NCBI GenBank assembly: GCA_043827025.1
Contig: JBDRPL010000009.1
Location: 4,075 to 68,074, forward strand
DNA length: 64,000 nucleotides
Reading direction: 5' to 3'
From: Candidatus Micrarchaeota archaeon
GTDB lineage: Archaea; Micrarchaeota; Micrarchaeia; Anstonellales; Bilamarchaeaceae
Shown: positions 3,626 to 29,623 of the stretch, in pieces
Position numbering within the stretch: the stretch's first letter is position 1
How the letters are laid out: each line of letters begins with the position of its first letter
The notes under the pieces: generated by a model
Told to the model about the DNA's origin: nothing
What the model saw: the letters and a program-made list of their open reading frames with translations, nothing else
Databases searched by the model: none
Made by a program: the position numbers and the translations under genes

Positions 3626-4006
3626 ATGAAGAAAGTAGTACTTGATACGAATTTCCTTCTTGCGCCTTACCAGTTTAAGATAGACATATTCACCCAGCTT
3701 CGGGATATGATACCTACAAATTACGAGTTGTATGTGTCCAAGAGGATATTGCACGAAATAACCAGGTTGTCACAGAGCACAGGAAGGCATGCCTCAGCTG
3801 CGCGATTCGCTCTCAAACTTATTGCAGTAAACAAGGTGAAAGTAATTGATTCGGATGAATTTGCAGATGATTGGATTGTCAAGTATGCGGAAGAAGACGA
3901 AGATGTCATTGTCTGCACGAACGATATATTTCTAAAGAACAGAGTCAAGGCGCGTAAGAGAAAAGTCGTTGGAATGAGGACAAAGGCGAGACTTGCTTTT
4001 CTTTGA
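3626..4006 (+). CDS. PIN-domain nuclease, Fcf1/Utp24-like
   Basis: VVLDTNFL, ADDWIV, CTNDxxLK motifs; typical neighbour of eIF2-gamma/rpS6e. Confidence 0.9.
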   Translation: MKKVVLDTNFLLAPYQFKIDIFTQLRDMIPTNYELYVSKRILHEITRLSQSTGRHASAARFALKLIAVNKVKVIDSDEFADDWIVKYAEEDEDVIVCTNDIFLKNRVKARKRKVVGMRTKARLAFL

Positions 4007-4045: not shown

Positions 4046-5002
4046 ATGCCTAACCACCCTATCCTTCTTTACCGCGGAGGCGAGTTCGATGCGAACTTCT
4101 ATCACTATTCAAATCTTGACATAGACAACGGAATACTTTTGGTAGATGGAAACAAAAAGACATTGTTCATCTCGAAGATGAACGAAACCTTCGCAAAGAA
4201 ATGGTTCGATGGAAAAGTAGTTGTTTACAAGGAAACTAAGGAACTAGCTAAACACATCAAATCCAAGAAATTGTTTTTCGATTCCAAATCTATGACTGTA
4301 AGAATCCACAAGCGTCTCTCTAAATTATTCAAACTGGAAGATGCTTCCGAGCAGCTTGCATTGGCGCGAGTGAAAAAAACAAGCGATGAGGTTTCAAAAA
4401 TAAGAAGAGCAGTTTCACTGTCAAAGAAAATATTTGGCGAACTCGATTTTTCGAACTTCAAAACAGAAAGCGATGTTCGTAAATTCCTTCTCGTGCGAAC
4501 CCTGGAGTTGGGATTGGAGCCCGCATTTCAGCCGATAGTTGCATCTGGAAGAAATGCCTCCATGCCTCATTATTCCGAGTTCAATTCAAAACTTTCTGAT
4601 TTGGTGCTAGTGGATTATGGAGTAAGATACAAACACTACAATGCGGATTTGACAAGATGTTTTTTCTTGAAAAAAGACAATAAAAAGGAACAGGCATATG
4701 AATCAGTAAAGCAAGTCTTCAACGAGCTTGTTGATAATTTCCAGAACTTCAAAACAGCAAAGCAGTTTGCAGAATTTGGCGCCAAACAAATGAAAAAACA
4801 GGGACTGCCTGAAATGATTCATTCATTTGGCCATGGCATTGGATTAGATGTGCATGAGAAGCCAAGGCTAAGCGTTTTTTCAAAGGACAAACTCTTGCCA
4901 AAGACTGCAATGGCAATCGAGCCTGCTGCTTACTTCAAGGATTTTGGAGTTAGATATGAAGAAACTGTTTATTTTGATGGGAAGAAAGCAAGAATATTGT
5001 AG
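4046..5002 (+). CDS. Xaa-Pro aminopeptidase (M24 family)
   Basis: DYG, ADLTRC, HSFGHGIGLDVHE, IEP, GVRYEE metal-ligand motifs. Confidence 0.92.
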   Translation: MPNHPILLYRGGEFDANFYHYSNLDIDNGILLVDGNKKTLFISKMNETFAKKWFDGKVVVYKETKELAKHIKSKKLFFDSKSMTVRIHKRLSKLFKLEDASEQLALARVKKTSDEVSKIRRAVSLSKKIFGELDFSNFKTESDVRKFLLVRTLELGLEPAFQPIVASGRNASMPHYSEFNSKLSDLVLVDYGVRYKHYNADLTRCFFLKKDNKKEQAYESVKQVFNELVDNFQNFKTAKQFAEFGAKQMKKQGLPEMIHSFGHGIGLDVHEKPRLSVFSKDKLLPKTAMAIEPAAYFKDFGVRYEETVYFDGKKARIL

Positions 5003-5668: not shown

Positions 5669-8353
5669 CTATTTCCTCTCCCCATATTCCTTCAAGAACG
5701 CACTGTACTCTTTCAGCATATCTTCTGTCAAAGATGGCCTTCTTGTCTTTATTATCGCGGCAATGTTATCGGTGGTCATCTTTACCTTCTTTCCAGCTAT
5801 CTTCTGCCTAAGAATATCCATCTTCACCTGCTGGCAGATTGAATAAATGTCTGCACCTGTGAACCCAAGTGTCATTTTTCCAAGTTTCTTAAGATCAAGC
5901 CCGTCTGAAATATCTCCAAGATATAACTTGAACATCTCTGCCCTTCCTCTTTCATTTGGAGGTGGGATGTAGAATATCTTATCAAATCTTCCTGGTCTCA
6001 GAATCGCAGTATCAAGTGCACCAGGCCTATTGGTAGTCCCGACAACAACGACTCCCTTCAATTCGTTTATACCATCCATCTCTGTCAAAAATTGCCCTGT
6101 TACTTCAGAAGCCATGGTGCCCCGTGACGGTGCAATACTTTCAATTTCATCAACAAATATTATTGCAGGGGTATTCTCACGCGCACGGTTGAACGTTTCT
6201 TTTATTATTGAGACGGCCTGGCTATAACCTCGTTTCACAATTTCTGCTCCGGTGAGCACCTGGAAAGATGCCTTTAATTCTCCTGATGCTGCCTTTACAA
6301 TAAGGGTCTTACCTGTTCCTGGCGGACCGAAAAGCAGAATTCCTTTTGCAGGCTTTATTTTCATTTTTTTCATTTCTTCTTCATGCAATAAAGGGAATTC
6401 AATTGTTTCAAGGAATGCCTGTTTTACCCGATCCAACCCAATGACCTCTTCCCATTTTACAATCTCTTTCTTTTCTGTTTCTTTGGCCCCTATTCTCCTT
6501 TCGAAATCTGTCCTGAATTGCTTGAAGTTGTCAAGGCTTGCAATGCTTGTACTTGGCTTCACTTTGCTGATTATATCAATCACATGCTCTGTTTTCAATG
6601 GCACTACGACTCCTTTCTTCATAGCTTCCTTTGCAGCAAGTTTCACAGCCTCATTTATTATATTTTTTATGTCTGCACCGGAGAATCTCTCTGTTTTTTC
6701 TGCGAATTTTTTGTAGTCTATCTTGTCCTCAATAGGCAGGTTCTTGAGGTGGACTCTGAATATCGCTTCCCTTGTTTTCTTGTCAGGAAGAGACATATAT
6801 ATTATCTTATCAAGCCTTCCAGGCCTTAGCAATGCCTCGTCAATCTGGTCAGGCACATTCGTGGCGCCTATGAGTATAACTGGCTTCTTGGATTTTATTC
6901 CTCCATCTATCTGCTGGAGCAGAATGCTGAGCACTCTCTGTGCCACATCATCATTTTGCAGGCTCCTTTTCTTCCCTATGCTATCGATCTCATCGAAAAA
7001 CAATATGGACGGTGCATTCTTTCTGGCGATTTCGAAGACTTCGCTTACATTCCTTTCAGATTCGCCGTGCCATTGGCTCATGATATCGGATGCCTTCACA
7101 TAATAGAAACCATATTTCAGTTCCTTTGCCAATGCCCGCATGAGCATGGTTTTACCTGTTCCAGGAGGACCGAACAAAAGAATGCCTGATGGTGCCTTCA
7201 TCCCATAAGTATATGCAAGTTCTTTCTTTTCCAGAGGGACAACTATGGATTCCTTTAATTCATCCTTTACATCATCATAGCCCCCTACGTCTTTCATGGA
7301 GACTTCGCTGGAGCCAAGGCCCATGTCCTGCAAGCCGAACTTCCCGAATTTTTTCATCTTTTCAGTGCGGTTTATCTCTTCTTCCTTGCTTATCTTCACT
7401 TCGAATTGTTCGAGTATTGCTATTAAAATTACTGAAGATGCAACCATTCCTACGAATTCCATGTGGAATTCGGTTGAGGTCAGAGTGGCTATAAAATAAT
7501 AAATTGGGATTATAAGCAAATATGCTAAACTCGCAATGCTTTGTGACCTTCTGTTTCTCATTGTTCCTGAAAGGGAGCTGACGAGGTAAAGTACAACTGC
7601 CCACCCTAGTATCTGGATAATCCCAGTATCAGAGAATAGGACAAGCCAGACATTGCTGAATGTTTTTCCCATTGCATTGTCTAATTCGCTCACAGCCTCC
7701 CAGGTGGCAAGTCCTGCAAGCGAACTCAACCCTGTTGGAATGATTTGTACAATTTCCGTAGGGCCCTTGGAAATCATCAGGTCTTGACTTGCAGGCTGAT
7801 ACAACGCTATGTTCACTGGAAGGTATGCGCTATTTTCCATGAGCCATATGGAGGAAAAGAGGAGGATGAGAAATACAGATGCGCTTGCAATACCAAGGCT
7901 TTTCTTTGATCCGAAATGAAATGCAGCAATAAGCATTCCGAATATGGTAAACCATCCGAAGAACGAACCAAAAGGTGTGCCATGGAATGCAAATGGCGAT
8001 AGTATCAGTATCTGCAGGGCTGAAATTATTGCCCATTGGGTGAACATCTGGAAAAAGGTAAGTGATATCAATAATGTAAAGAGCCATGCAAGGGGGGCGG
8101 ATTGGTATGCAACTGCAGGGAATGCCAAGACCATTCCAAGGCCTGTGCCTGCCCATGGGACTTTATATGCCACGGCCCCGCAGATTATGGCAAGAATTAT
8201 ATTTAGTGGATTTGGGTAGAATGTAAAAGTGTTGAACAAAAACAGTGTTCCTAGAAATACAAGCATTGAGTTCCAGAACTCTTCATTATCTTGTATCATT
8301 TTTAGGTATGCCCGGACTTTTTGATGTGCCAAGGAGGTTTGCTGAGTTGCCAT
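5669..8353 (-). CDS. Tandem AAA+ (CDC48/VCP-like) ATPase with polytopic N-terminal membrane domain
   Basis: Two GPPGTGKT Walker A, FFDEID/FVDEIE Walker B, LLRPGRLD/ILRPGRFD arginine fingers; first ~320 aa carry about 10 hydrophobic helices. Confidence 0.92.
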   Translation of the reverse strand: MATQQTSLAHQKVRAYLKMIQDNEEFWNSMLVFLGTLFLFNTFTFYPNPLNIILAIICGAVAYKVPWAGTGLGMVLAFPAVAYQSAPLAWLFTLLISLTFFQMFTQWAIISALQILILSPFAFHGTPFGSFFGWFTIFGMLIAAFHFGSKKSLGIASASVFLILLFSSIWLMENSAYLPVNIALYQPASQDLMISKGPTEIVQIIPTGLSSLAGLATWEAVSELDNAMGKTFSNVWLVLFSDTGIIQILGWAVVLYLVSSLSGTMRNRRSQSIASLAYLLIIPIYYFIATLTSTEFHMEFVGMVASSVILIAILEQFEVKISKEEEINRTEKMKKFGKFGLQDMGLGSSEVSMKDVGGYDDVKDELKESIVVPLEKKELAYTYGMKAPSGILLFGPPGTGKTMLMRALAKELKYGFYYVKASDIMSQWHGESERNVSEVFEIARKNAPSILFFDEIDSIGKKRSLQNDDVAQRVLSILLQQIDGGIKSKKPVILIGATNVPDQIDEALLRPGRLDKIIYMSLPDKKTREAIFRVHLKNLPIEDKIDYKKFAEKTERFSGADIKNIINEAVKLAAKEAMKKGVVVPLKTEHVIDIISKVKPSTSIASLDNFKQFRTDFERRIGAKETEKKEIVKWEEVIGLDRVKQAFLETIEFPLLHEEEMKKMKIKPAKGILLFGPPGTGKTLIVKAASGELKASFQVLTGAEIVKRGYSQAVSIIKETFNRARENTPAIIFVDEIESIAPSRGTMASEVTGQFLTEMDGINELKGVVVVGTTNRPGALDTAILRPGRFDKIFYIPPPNERGRAEMFKLYLGDISDGLDLKKLGKMTLGFTGADIYSICQQVKMDILRQKIAGKKVKMTTDNIAAIIKTRRPSLTEDMLKEYSAFLKEYGERK

Positions 8354-8518: not shown

Positions 8519-9715
8519 TTATCTACAAGCCAATTTCGTATATTCCTCAGAATATTTTCCAGCAGTAGGCGTGCCTGTGCTTCCAAGTACAAATCTCGTA
8601 AAGAAGACTTTTGATGCACCGTTTCTCAAAGCTCCAAGGAATGAAGGTGCCATATCTGCCTTTTCCTTGTATTCAGCCTCGGTTATCCATATTGGTTTGC
8701 TGATGTTGACAGCATTAAGCTGTTCCTTCCATTTTTTAGTATTTAGGTTGGTGACATCCCCACTTTTTACATAGTGCATGTTGGTTATGTCTATATAATC
8801 TCCAAGTCCTTTTTGGTATTCTACTTTCCAGTATAGCAAAAACGTAGTTGTGGTTCCTGCTGCGCCACCTTGTACTATCTTGCAGTCTTCGCAAGTCTCT
8901 TTGATTGCCCCATAGCTTGCCTTTACGACATCCAGATAATCCTGCTGGTCTCCTTTGAAGAAGTTCAGGGTACTTGATTCCAATTCAGGTTCATTTATTA
9001 TTTCCCAATATTTTATCGGGTATTTCAAGCCAGGCATATCATTGATACCATCTCCATCATATCTTTCAACCAGCTTGGTCAGGAACTTCGTATAATCTGC
9101 CATGCTATATGGTTTACATCTCATGGCAGGTATTCCCTTGTTGGTTCCACTTGGATAGAATTCATCCTCCTTTCCTACACTACAATCCTTTGAGTATTTC
9201 TTCTGGTCCCAGTCTGCAAATGGCCAGATTGTTGCGAGTATTGTTACGTTATTTTTCTGGGCGGCAATGGCATATTCATCAGTTCTGCTGAAATCGTATT
9301 TCTCTGCCTCAGTTGGCTGGACGAACCCCCAGACAAATGGGCCAGGGTGTGGTCTTACCCAGCTTGCACCTATTGTATTTACTGTTGACATTTCTTCAGG
9401 AGTTCCGACAAGGAATCCAATACAGTTTCCCTCTATTTCTGGAGGTATGGACAACTTTTCGGTTTTTGCTGGTTCCACTACGGTGGTTTCCTCCTTTGGA
9501 GGCTCTACGACAGGAAGTTCCTGTGTTTTATTTTCAACGGGTATAATCGGAATCTGATCAATCGGTTTTTTTTCTGGTTCGATTACTGTCACCTTTTCCT
9601 GTTCTACCACGATCTTTACGTTCACTTCTTCAGGTGCTTCCTGCTTTTTAGCAGTACTCTGTGTGCATCCGAAAACCAGCATCAATATCAAGATAGCAGC
9701 CATCAGCCTTTTCAT
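8519..9715 (-). CDS. Lipoprotein glycoside hydrolase, clan GH-A-like TIM barrel
   Basis: Lipobox-like VFGC, Pro/Glu-rich linker, WEIINEPE acid/base motif and WITE nucleophile motif. Confidence 0.75.
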   Translation of the reverse strand: MKRLMAAILILMLVFGCTQSTAKKQEAPEEVNVKIVVEQEKVTVIEPEKKPIDQIPIIPVENKTQELPVVEPPKEETTVVEPAKTEKLSIPPEIEGNCIGFLVGTPEEMSTVNTIGASWVRPHPGPFVWGFVQPTEAEKYDFSRTDEYAIAAQKNNVTILATIWPFADWDQKKYSKDCSVGKEDEFYPSGTNKGIPAMRCKPYSMADYTKFLTKLVERYDGDGINDMPGLKYPIKYWEIINEPELESSTLNFFKGDQQDYLDVVKASYGAIKETCEDCKIVQGGAAGTTTTFLLYWKVEYQKGLGDYIDITNMHYVKSGDVTNLNTKKWKEQLNAVNISKPIWITEAEYKEKADMAPSFLGALRNGASKVFFTRFVLGSTGTPTAGKYSEEYTKLACR

Positions 9716-28978: not shown

Positions 28979-29623
28979 TCAGGATTCAATTATTTTTTTG
29001 ACATCCTCCTTCCTCATCCTCTGAAATCCGTTCTTGTCTATTACGACCAAATCTACTCTTTCACCGCTTGCAGCATCTCTTTTCATTGCAGATGTGACTG
29101 CCTTTGCAGCTATAAGCAGATTCTCATGTACTGTGGCATTGTCGGTGTAAAGGTCTTCAATGACACCGTATGCAATTGGCGAACCGCTGCCTGTGGATGT
29201 CAACTTCTCTTCAGTGACTCCTCCGAGCATATCAATACTATATAATCTTGGTTTGCTGTCATATCCGCCAAGGAGTATCTGCACCCAAAAGGGGTAATAT
29301 TTATGCCCTGCCAGTATGTTTGCAAGTAATGTAGCTGCTGCCTGTATTGATGCTTTTTTACTGTGTTTCAATTCATATAATTTCAATTCTGCAGACATCC
29401 ACCTTATGAGTGTTTGTGCATCTCCCACGCTTCCTGCGATAGTCATGCCTATGTGCTTGTCTATTGGATATATCTTATCAATATCCTTGCTTGCGATCAA
29501 GTATCCCATCGTGGCACGTCTGTCCGATGCCAGGACTACGCTGTCCTTTCCGACTAATCCGACAGTTGTTGTACCGGTTTTGATGATCCTCTCGTTTTTC
29601 ATGCTTTCTTTTTGGTCATCCAT
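28979..29623 (-). CDS. psmB: Proteasome beta subunit
   Basis: Propeptide ending KTG|TTTVG, ASDRRAT, GSGSPIAYG, RDAASG. Confidence 0.97.
   Translation of the reverse strand: MDDQKESMKNERIIKTGTTTVGLVGKDSVVLASDRRATMGYLIASKDIDKIYPIDKHIGMTIAGSVGDAQTLIRWMSAELKLYELKHSKKASIQAAATLLANILAGHKYYPFWVQILLGGYDSKPRLYSIDMLGGVTEEKLTSTGSGSPIAYGVIEDLYTDNATVHENLLIAAKAVTSAMKRDAASGERVDLVVIDKNGFQRMRKEDVKKIIES

Follow-up and report, generated by a model that had tools for sequence, protein, structure and literature searches.

The locus described here raises the question of what a tandem AAA ATPase can do when its own N-terminal domain builds it into a membrane. The gene lies on the minus strand, at 5669-8353, of a 64,000-nucleotide stretch of contig JBDRPL010000009.1 (positions 4,075 to 68,074 of the forward strand; assembly GCA_043827025.1) from Candidatus Micrarchaeota archaeon; this whole stretch is referred to below as the window. 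The open reading frame (ORF) is uninterrupted and encodes 894 amino acids followed by a stop. As drawn from the ORF list, the translation, and the homologue alignment, its product consists of a membrane domain (aa 24-316), a linker of about 35 residues, and two complete classical AAA modules. We hold with about even confidence that this protein is a hexameric, self-anchored extractase that pulls membrane or membrane-anchored proteins into the cytosol. The fusion itself appears to be undescribed.

The membrane domain and its linker

A Pfam scan of the 894-residue protein places two copies of the AAA domain (PF00004, E 2e-78) and two of AAA_lid_3 (PF17862) at aa ~350-894. The same resource gives no match on aa 1-330 and finds neither CDC48_N nor a peptidase in the protein, including Peptidase_M41, the HEXXH zinc protease domain of FtsH. 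An earlier reading made from the letters alone, here called the sequence-only reading, had described two complete AAA modules with particular pore-loop motifs behind some 320 residues of hydrophobic helices, and neither a double-psi-barrel N-domain nor a protease domain. All of this is borne out: the motifs lie where they had been placed, hydropathy is high to about aa 320, the AlphaFold2 model of this part is all-helical, and Pfam finds neither of the two missing domains.

AlphaFold2, run on aa 1-345 with a 56-sequence alignment, gave a model with a mean predicted local distance difference test score (pLDDT) of 93.6 and a predicted template modelling score (pTM) of 0.90; the full-length monomer model (pLDDT 84.3, pTM 0.57) repeats this picture of the N-terminal domain. 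The membrane domain (7406-8284, minus strand, as are all features of this gene) is delimited by the model, by conservation, and by the absence of Pfam and fold matches. Eleven hydrophobic helices are modelled in it, at aa 24-42, 48-64, 66-84, 86-121, 129-147, 149-170, 201-216, 218-241, 244-264, 270-292, and 298-316, of which the longest (86-121) has 36 residues; aa 171-200 form a 30-residue loop. Ahead of the first helix stands an N-terminal tail (aa 1-23; 8285-8353) with a basic amphipathic helix at aa 8-22, in which K12 is Lys or Arg in 95% of homologues. The modelled structure, charge counts, and the Thermoplasmatota variants described below indicate that this tail is probably cytosolic. 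Judged from those variants, the polypeptide enters the domain from the cytosolic side, and as the AAA part has to be on that side as well, it should cross the membrane an even number of times, most likely ten. Helices 201-216 and 218-241 are weakly hydrophobic, and if there are ten passes, as is most likely, one of these two does not cross the membrane. Eleven hydrophobic helices with ten probable passes agree well with the roughly ten transmembrane segments first proposed.

Conservation was assessed in an alignment of 56 full-length homologues, and homologues align from residue 1. Invariant residues of the membrane domain include Q84, W107, P120, F121, G148, S149, W170, and W251, and D242, Q247, Q271, and E315 are nearly so. 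In the middle of the long helix, positions 102 and 105 are acidic in most members (consensus E102/E105) and are Q102 and T105 here. Between two membrane helices lies a conserved GSKKS turn (aa 148-152; 7898-7912), which begins with the invariant G148 and S149 and in which K150 and K151 are Lys or Arg in about 80% of homologues. FYP, AFPAVAYQS, FGSKKS, and FGKFG are the motifs of the family in this region. The last of these, at aa 336-340, belongs to the short basic linker (aa 317-350; 7304-7405), which is modelled with a helix at 324-344 and has invariant E324 and G340; in the AlphaFold2 models, the distance from the last membrane helix to the first AAA module is only about 35 residues.

No curated family covers the membrane domain in Pfam or NCBIfam, where 23 members searched at E values up to 1 gave only scattered chance matches. 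No internal repeat was detected by hhalign of its halves and quarters (probability below 1%). The structural comparison that had been proposed for aa 1-320 finds no neighbour in the PDB: the N-domain model gave a best E of 0.5 with a TM-score of about 0.2, in a Foldseek search that is weakly sensitive for helical membrane bundles. Against viral models the best E was 0.43, again no match. Rhomboid/Derlin, Hrd1, insertase, and transporter folds likewise gave no match in the same low-sensitivity search, and the sequence-only reading's suggestions of a membrane channel or of a relation to endoplasmic-reticulum-associated degradation (ERAD) gain no supporting evidence here. Its large size, its invariant polar and tryptophan residues, and the high confidence of its model argue that the membrane domain does more than anchor the protein, a task for which it is far too large and too conserved. 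The same size and conservation argue that it may take an active part, by recruiting substrates or by easing their exit from the bilayer.

The tandem motor and its ancestry

The first module, D1 (aa 351-622; 6488-7303), was assigned from Pfam and NCBIfam together with its lid and a Vps4-C-like stretch. It contains Walker A GPPGTGKT (aa 395-402; 7148-7171), pore loop 1 SQWHGES (aa 426-432; 7058-7078), and Walker B ILFFDEID (aa 450-457; 6983-7006). The second module, D2 (aa 630-894; 5672-6466), assigned likewise and also with a lid, contains Walker A GPPGTGKT (aa 676-683; 6305-6328), a non-canonical pore loop KRGYSQAV (aa 707-714; 6212-6235), and Walker B IIFVDEIE (aa 731-738; 6140-6163). These sites were located by motif, and the pore loops and Walker B sites by the homologue alignment as well. 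The Walker A lysine, the Walker B Asp-Glu pair, the sensor-1 asparagine, and both RPGR arginines show no variation among the homologues in either module; sensor 1 reads GATN in D1 and GTTN in D2, and the finger position RPGRLD and RPGRFD, respectively. The classical set of AAA hallmarks is thus present and invariant in both modules except for pore loop 1 of D2, and because the catalytic motifs are invariant, both rings should bind and hydrolyse ATP.

The two pore loops differ in kind. That of D1 has the family consensus S-x-W-Y-G-E-S-E, which keeps the aromatic residue and the glycine; that of D2 has the consensus K-x-G-Y-x-x-A-V in place of the usual K-aromatic-hydrophobic-G-E-S-E. The D2 loop had been called degenerate, and it does depart from the canonical motif. 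It is, however, conserved: at least 80% of homologues share K707, G709, and A713, and at least 60% share Y710, which identifies it, as judged from the alignment, as a family-specific motif and not decay. The D1 loop is singled out in another way. Inteins occur in 15 of the 75 homologue clusters (P0003, P0009, P0011, P0013, P0014, P0018, P0021, P0022, P0028, P0040, P0043, P0046, P0047, P0055, and P0056), always at one fixed D1 site, WYGE|SEKN, between the equivalents of E431 and S432. Some are full-size inteins of ~494 aa that include a LAGLIDADG endonuclease, others mini-inteins of ~180 aa; they begin with SLPY and end with FAHN followed by Ser, and are absent from the gene in the window. Inteins as a rule occupy functionally critical, strongly constrained sites, and their insertion exactly here marks the D1 pore loop as critical. 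Toward its C-terminal end, D1 has a stretch resembling the Vps4 C-terminal helix (KPSTS...F..DFERR), the Pfam Vps4_C match itself falling on a relative (P0106, aa 614-646).

The protein resembles VAT and Cdc48 in its two stacked classical AAA modules with lids, collinear over about 540 residues and with intact catalytic motifs. The AAA part aligns with the Thermoplasma VAT structures 5G4G and 5VC7 (query 4-540 against 180-717, E 6e-112) and also with Cdc48/p97, and some relatives of the membrane protein share the terminal HbYX (hydrophobic-tyrosine-any residue) tail of archaeal Cdc48. It differs in having a multi-pass membrane domain in place of the double-psi-barrel N-domain, and in having its canonical pore loop in D1 and its deviant one in D2. 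The best NCBIfam model, CDC48 (TIGR01243), scores 480.8 bits, below the curated cut-off of 802.65. Taken singly, the modules score 248 bits (D1) and 244 bits (D2) against this model, and both match best on its D2 part (positions ~450-731).

A tree of single modules included 17 members of the family, 12 VATs from the phylum, four Thermoplasmatota variants, and, as outgroup, two TPR-AAA proteins of this genome. In this quick, thinly rooted tree with few outgroups, the family D1 modules form a clade with support 98 and the D2 modules one with support 96, as do VAT D1 (100) and VAT D2 (97). VAT D1 and VAT D2 join each other (95) and are then joined by family D2 (97); family D1 and the single modules of the Thermoplasmatota variants fall outside this group. 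Run in this way against the VAT modules, the AAA phylogeny places neither D1 nor D2 with its VAT counterpart. The label "CDC48-like" given by the sequence-only reading therefore holds for the overall two-module layout and does not extend to the score, to the D2-like modules, or to their grouping. Both modules being Cdc48-D2-like and branching apart from VAT D1 and D2, the family would be an old AAA lineage. The module tree and the per-module scores rule out a VAT with a recently swapped N-domain.

The same genome encodes a separate, soluble VAT of 711 aa with CDC48_N and the C-terminus SMYR, and CDC48_N is present in 150 of the 151 genomes of the class. The membrane AAA protein is thus an additional paralogue beside VAT, and a replacement of VAT in reduced genomes is ruled out by the same count. 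In four genomes (G091, G081, G028, and G126) the ORFs with a VAT N-domain measure 1,173-1,392 aa, against about 720 usually, an indication that their soluble VAT, too, contains inteins or other inserted sequence.

Distribution, variants, and genomic context

When aa 1-340 were searched against 5.8 billion proteins, homologues came back in 75 clusters, 32-59% identical over this stretch and all with AAA domains as well. Nearly all are ~895 aa long, or ~1,080-1,400 aa with an intein, and a few are truncated partial entries. The names of the clusters point to Micrarchaeota, Bilamarchaeaceae, Anstonellales, or Burarchaeum, with the exception of a partial entry (P0031) labelled Candidatus ainarchaeum sp. 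At the genome level, matches occur in 291 of the phylum's 401 genomes, in 140 of 188 high-quality genomes, and in 120 of 155 genera, usually as one copy per genome with an ORF of about 900 aa. Two large families of the class gave weak matches to the single sequence, and the profile search recovered real divergent members of 927-933 aa from them. The profile, built from 23 N-domains and run on 1.84 billion representative proteins at E ≤ 0.001, found only 76 clusters, namely Micrarchaeota and a few Thermoplasmatota variants. Conservation in relatives was one of the points on which the sequence-only reading had hung its proposal, and the fusion is kept across most of the phylum; prior description was the other, and neither a curated family nor a describing paper was found. 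Database labels read only "AAA family ATPase", "VCP-like ATPase", or "SpoVK/Ycf46/Vps4 family", and a full-text search of an incompletely covered literature gave no description of the architecture.

The weakest profile matches include Thermoplasmatota proteins of 987-1,295 aa (P0125, P0132, P0135, and P0157). They begin with a signal sequence and an extracellular domain of ~350 aa; an anchor helix comes next, then a strongly basic stretch just ahead of the conserved membrane domain, which is followed by one or two AAA modules. A profile comparison gives 97% probability over the first four helices, with PFYP and A-x-YQS in common. The branch is rare, comprising five clusters. At one of its loci (L076:1-9966) four genes form a tight row, in which the membrane AAA gene is third: ahead of it come genes for a giant, C-terminally anchored surface protein with immunoglobulin (Ig)-like repeats and for a secreted vWA protein, and after it one for a small membrane protein.

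In the window, the gene directly upstream (8519-9715, minus strand) encodes a predicted lipoprotein of 398 aa with a Pro/Glu-rich linker and no Pfam match. Downstream, beginning 37 bases from the AAA gene and overlapping each other by 4 bases, are minus-strand genes for a VapB antitoxin (75 aa, PF02697; 5404-5631) and a VapC PIN toxin (133 aa, PF01850; 5006-5407). They are followed on the plus strand by genes for an M24 peptidase (4046-5002) and, beyond it, a PIN_9 protein (3626-4006). Among 25 loci of other genomes, the commonest neighbour family occurs in six, all from one Micrarchaeota subclade, in which a secreted, Thr/Ser/Asn-rich, surface-layer-like protein of ~900 aa is encoded directly downstream on the same strand (L041 and L043-L048); most of these loci also have, downstream, a gene for a secreted protein of ~700 aa with C-terminal membrane helices. 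Large surface proteins with C-terminal anchors are encoded beside the gene both here and at the Thermoplasmatota locus, a weak contextual hint for extraction. In another subclade (five loci) an aromatic amino-acid operon lies upstream; considered as a functional partner, it was set aside, as it looks like plain synteny.

Most family members end in F..EYGER(K/R). The protein in the window ends in FLKEYGERK (aa 886-894; 5672-5698) and, from its sequence and the comparison with homologues, has no terminal HbYX motif. In six of the 75 clusters, YGERG is followed by an acidic, Pro-rich extension of ~20 aa ending in GMYR, SHYR, or SQYR, endings of the same kind as the SMYR of the genome's own VAT; P0010 and P0015 are among the tailed members. 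Because the nearest relatives of the tailed clusters have no tail, the HbYX tail is placed by these sequences in at least three lineages of separate origin. A flexible HbYX tail reportedly docks PAN and archaeal Cdc48 to the 20S proteasome. In the genome, which measures 1.33 Mb and is 91.6% complete, there are genes for the alpha and beta subunits of the 20S proteasome, LonB, VAT, and three TPR-AAA proteins. Peptidase_M41 has no match anywhere in the genome, and no PAN-type gene is found among its AAA matches, for which reason the TPR-AAA proteins and VAT may be the partners of the proteasome. The three TPR-AAA proteins combine TPR repeats with a single AAA module (contigs C19, C36, and C24 of this genome, G000; loci L004, L005, and L006) and have the Walker A motif GPPGCGK[T/S]; two of them have HbYX-like tails (KKMYG and KSMFG). 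One 20S subunit gene lies inside the window, at ~29039-29584 on the minus strand (G000:C9:33113-33658), about 21 kb from the AAA gene.

Proposed mechanism, alternatives, and meaning

The extractase that we favour would work as follows. By analogy with all classical AAA proteins, the type II AAA+ unfoldase would assemble as a hexamer, whose two stacked ATPase rings would hang directly beneath the cytoplasmic membrane and whose six membrane domains, with about 60 helices in total, would form a collar over the D1 pore. Classical AAA rings translocate from their N-terminal to their C-terminal face, and the cryo-electron microscopy literature on Cdc48, VAT, FtsH, and Msp1 puts the entry of substrate at the first ring's N-terminal face. 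The linker of only about 35 residues would hold this entry face of D1 against the membrane, as an extractase needs, and the intact motors, the canonical D1 loop, the short linker, and the fixed polarity of threading together argue for pulling from membrane to cytosol. A polypeptide segment would enter from the membrane side and pass through D1 and then D2 into the cytosol, driven by ATP hydrolysis in D1, with its canonical loop, and in D2, with its family-specific loop. Membrane proteins, or surface proteins anchored in the membrane, would in this manner be extracted and unfolded, either as quality control or in a regulated turnover, and the membrane domain would recruit these substrates and might help them leave the lipid bilayer. 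In HbYX-tailed lineages, the extracted chain might pass straight to the 20S proteasome, which would make the protein a functional counterpart of bacterial FtsH. In tail-less members, including this organism, the chain might be released to the proteasome with VAT, to the LonB system, or to refolding. The hexameric state, the pulling direction, the substrates, and the role of the membrane domain are the parts of this scheme that we infer. The self-anchored extractase had already been put forward by the sequence-only reading; the architecture, its conservation, the short linker, and the HbYX tails of relatives speak for it, and its function we still infer.

Several known systems share parts of this design. 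FtsH is likewise a membrane-anchored hexameric AAA ring on a short linker that pulls membrane proteins into its pore, and a ring joined to the 20S proteasome in the HbYX-tailed relatives would give the same overall logic; FtsH, however, is built from a pair of membrane helices, a single AAA ring, and an M41 zinc protease fused to it, whereas the present protein has about ten passes, two AAA modules, and no protease. Msp1/ATAD1, likewise a classical AAA ring that is anchored in the membrane and has no protease, draws tail-anchored proteins out through the pore at its centre; it is eukaryotic and has a single N-terminal membrane helix and one ring, in contrast to the eleven hydrophobic helices and two AAA modules found here, and no sequence or fold relation between its anchor and the membrane domain was detected. 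Archaeal LonB is a membrane-bound, ATP-dependent proteolytic machine that is also present in this genome, but its membrane helices lie within a single AAA+ module of another clade, it has a fused Ser-Lys protease, and it is unrelated to the membrane domain. Ycf2-FtsHi and Bcs1 also have AAA rings embedded in a membrane, across or out of which they carry polypeptides, and they serve as precedents for a non-degradative translocase. They differ in having other anchors and single rings and in being organellar, Bcs1 being moreover heptameric with folded cargo, and show no homology beyond the AAA fold. To our knowledge, none of FtsH, Msp1, LonB, Bcs1, and Ycf2-FtsHi joins a double ring to a comparably large multi-pass domain.

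A number of observations weigh against the extractase. No conserved neighbour emerges from the 25 loci of other genomes, so the neighbourhood gives no pointer to a partner or a substrate. The HbYX motif is absent from the protein in the window and from most of its relatives, so coupling to the proteasome is not general. LonB is present as a membrane-bound protease, and a second quality-control system is not obviously needed. Fold and family searches detected no relation between the membrane domain and a known component of retrotranslocation or insertion. Finally, even the profile gave no match in five genomes of 90% completeness or more, which come from five further families of the class. Because of these five genomes, the gene, which is widespread in the phylum, is neither universal in it nor essential for it.

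Other tasks have been weighed against these features. An NSF/Vps4-like remodelling motor would dismantle a membrane-bound assembly (surface-layer anchors, filaments, or symbiotic cell contacts) by partial unfolding of one subunit, without removing it from the membrane for degradation. Such a motor would be in keeping with the Vps4-C-like stretch after D1 and its Pfam match on P0106, with the absence of HbYX from most members, with the surface-protein neighbours of one subclade, and, in the Thermoplasmatota variant, with the adjoining vWA and giant Ig-like-repeat genes and the ~350-aa extracellular domain. It is nonetheless fairly unlikely, since Pfam finds no adaptor-binding domain of the MIT or NSF-N type in the protein, the neighbourhood hints come from a minority of loci, and the HbYX tails of some members point to degradation. 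A Snf7-type filament protein was also not found in the genome, in a search that its control showed to be poorly sensitive. The extractase could be carried further, to a hexamer that is a complete single-polypeptide retrotranslocon or translocon, in which a conduit or lipid-thinning gate of new fold, made of ~60 helices, would be combined with a Cdc48-type double ring; this would follow the principle of ERAD dislocation by Hrd1/Derlin plus Cdc48 and have evolved independently, or it would serve the uptake of host polypeptides. We regard this as distinctly unlikely.

The proposal of an import motor likewise makes the ring of membrane domains a protein channel, through which external polypeptides, possibly of host origin, would be drawn into the cytosol by the AAA rings, in a manner comparable to the Ycf2-FtsHi motor that imports proteins into chloroplasts. 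The pulling direction would be the same as in extraction, the family is nearly confined to host-dependent Micrarchaeota, about 60 helices per hexamer would be enough to enclose a conduit, and the predicted fold has no solved match. Yet there are distant homologues in Thermoplasmatota, which are not known as symbionts, some Micrarchaeota families are without the gene, neither pore evidence nor genes for partner receptors have been found, and the HbYX tails suggest destruction of the substrate and not its use, so that import seems quite improbable. Most improbable of all is an export motor that pushes cargo, folded or unfolded, outward through the membrane domain, as Bcs1 does, or a membrane transporter or enzyme under ATPase control. 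The conserved polar and acidic residues within the helices (Q84, D242, Q247, Q271, E315, and the consensus E102/E105) would suit a transport path, and the lack of a known fold match would agree with it; however, classical AAA threading would here run away from the membrane, canonical unfoldase pore loops are kept, and neither a transporter-type internal repeat nor a transporter family or fold match was found.

As far as we know, archaea have no FtsH, and the removal of unwanted membrane proteins is known there only through LonB. If the extractase reading is true, these archaea would have a second, differently built route for removing membrane proteins, in the form of a double-ring unfoldase conserved in the phylum, and in some lineages this membrane unfoldase seems to be wired to the 20S proteasome. 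A confidently predicted fold without a solved relative, placed on a well-understood motor, would offer a tractable system for studying how a substrate is handed over from a membrane domain to an AAA pore. Micrarchaeota depend on Thermoplasmatota hosts, and a few Thermoplasmatota are the only other carriers of the membrane domain found here. The protein is one of the few conserved, lineage-typical membrane machines of the Micrarchaeota.

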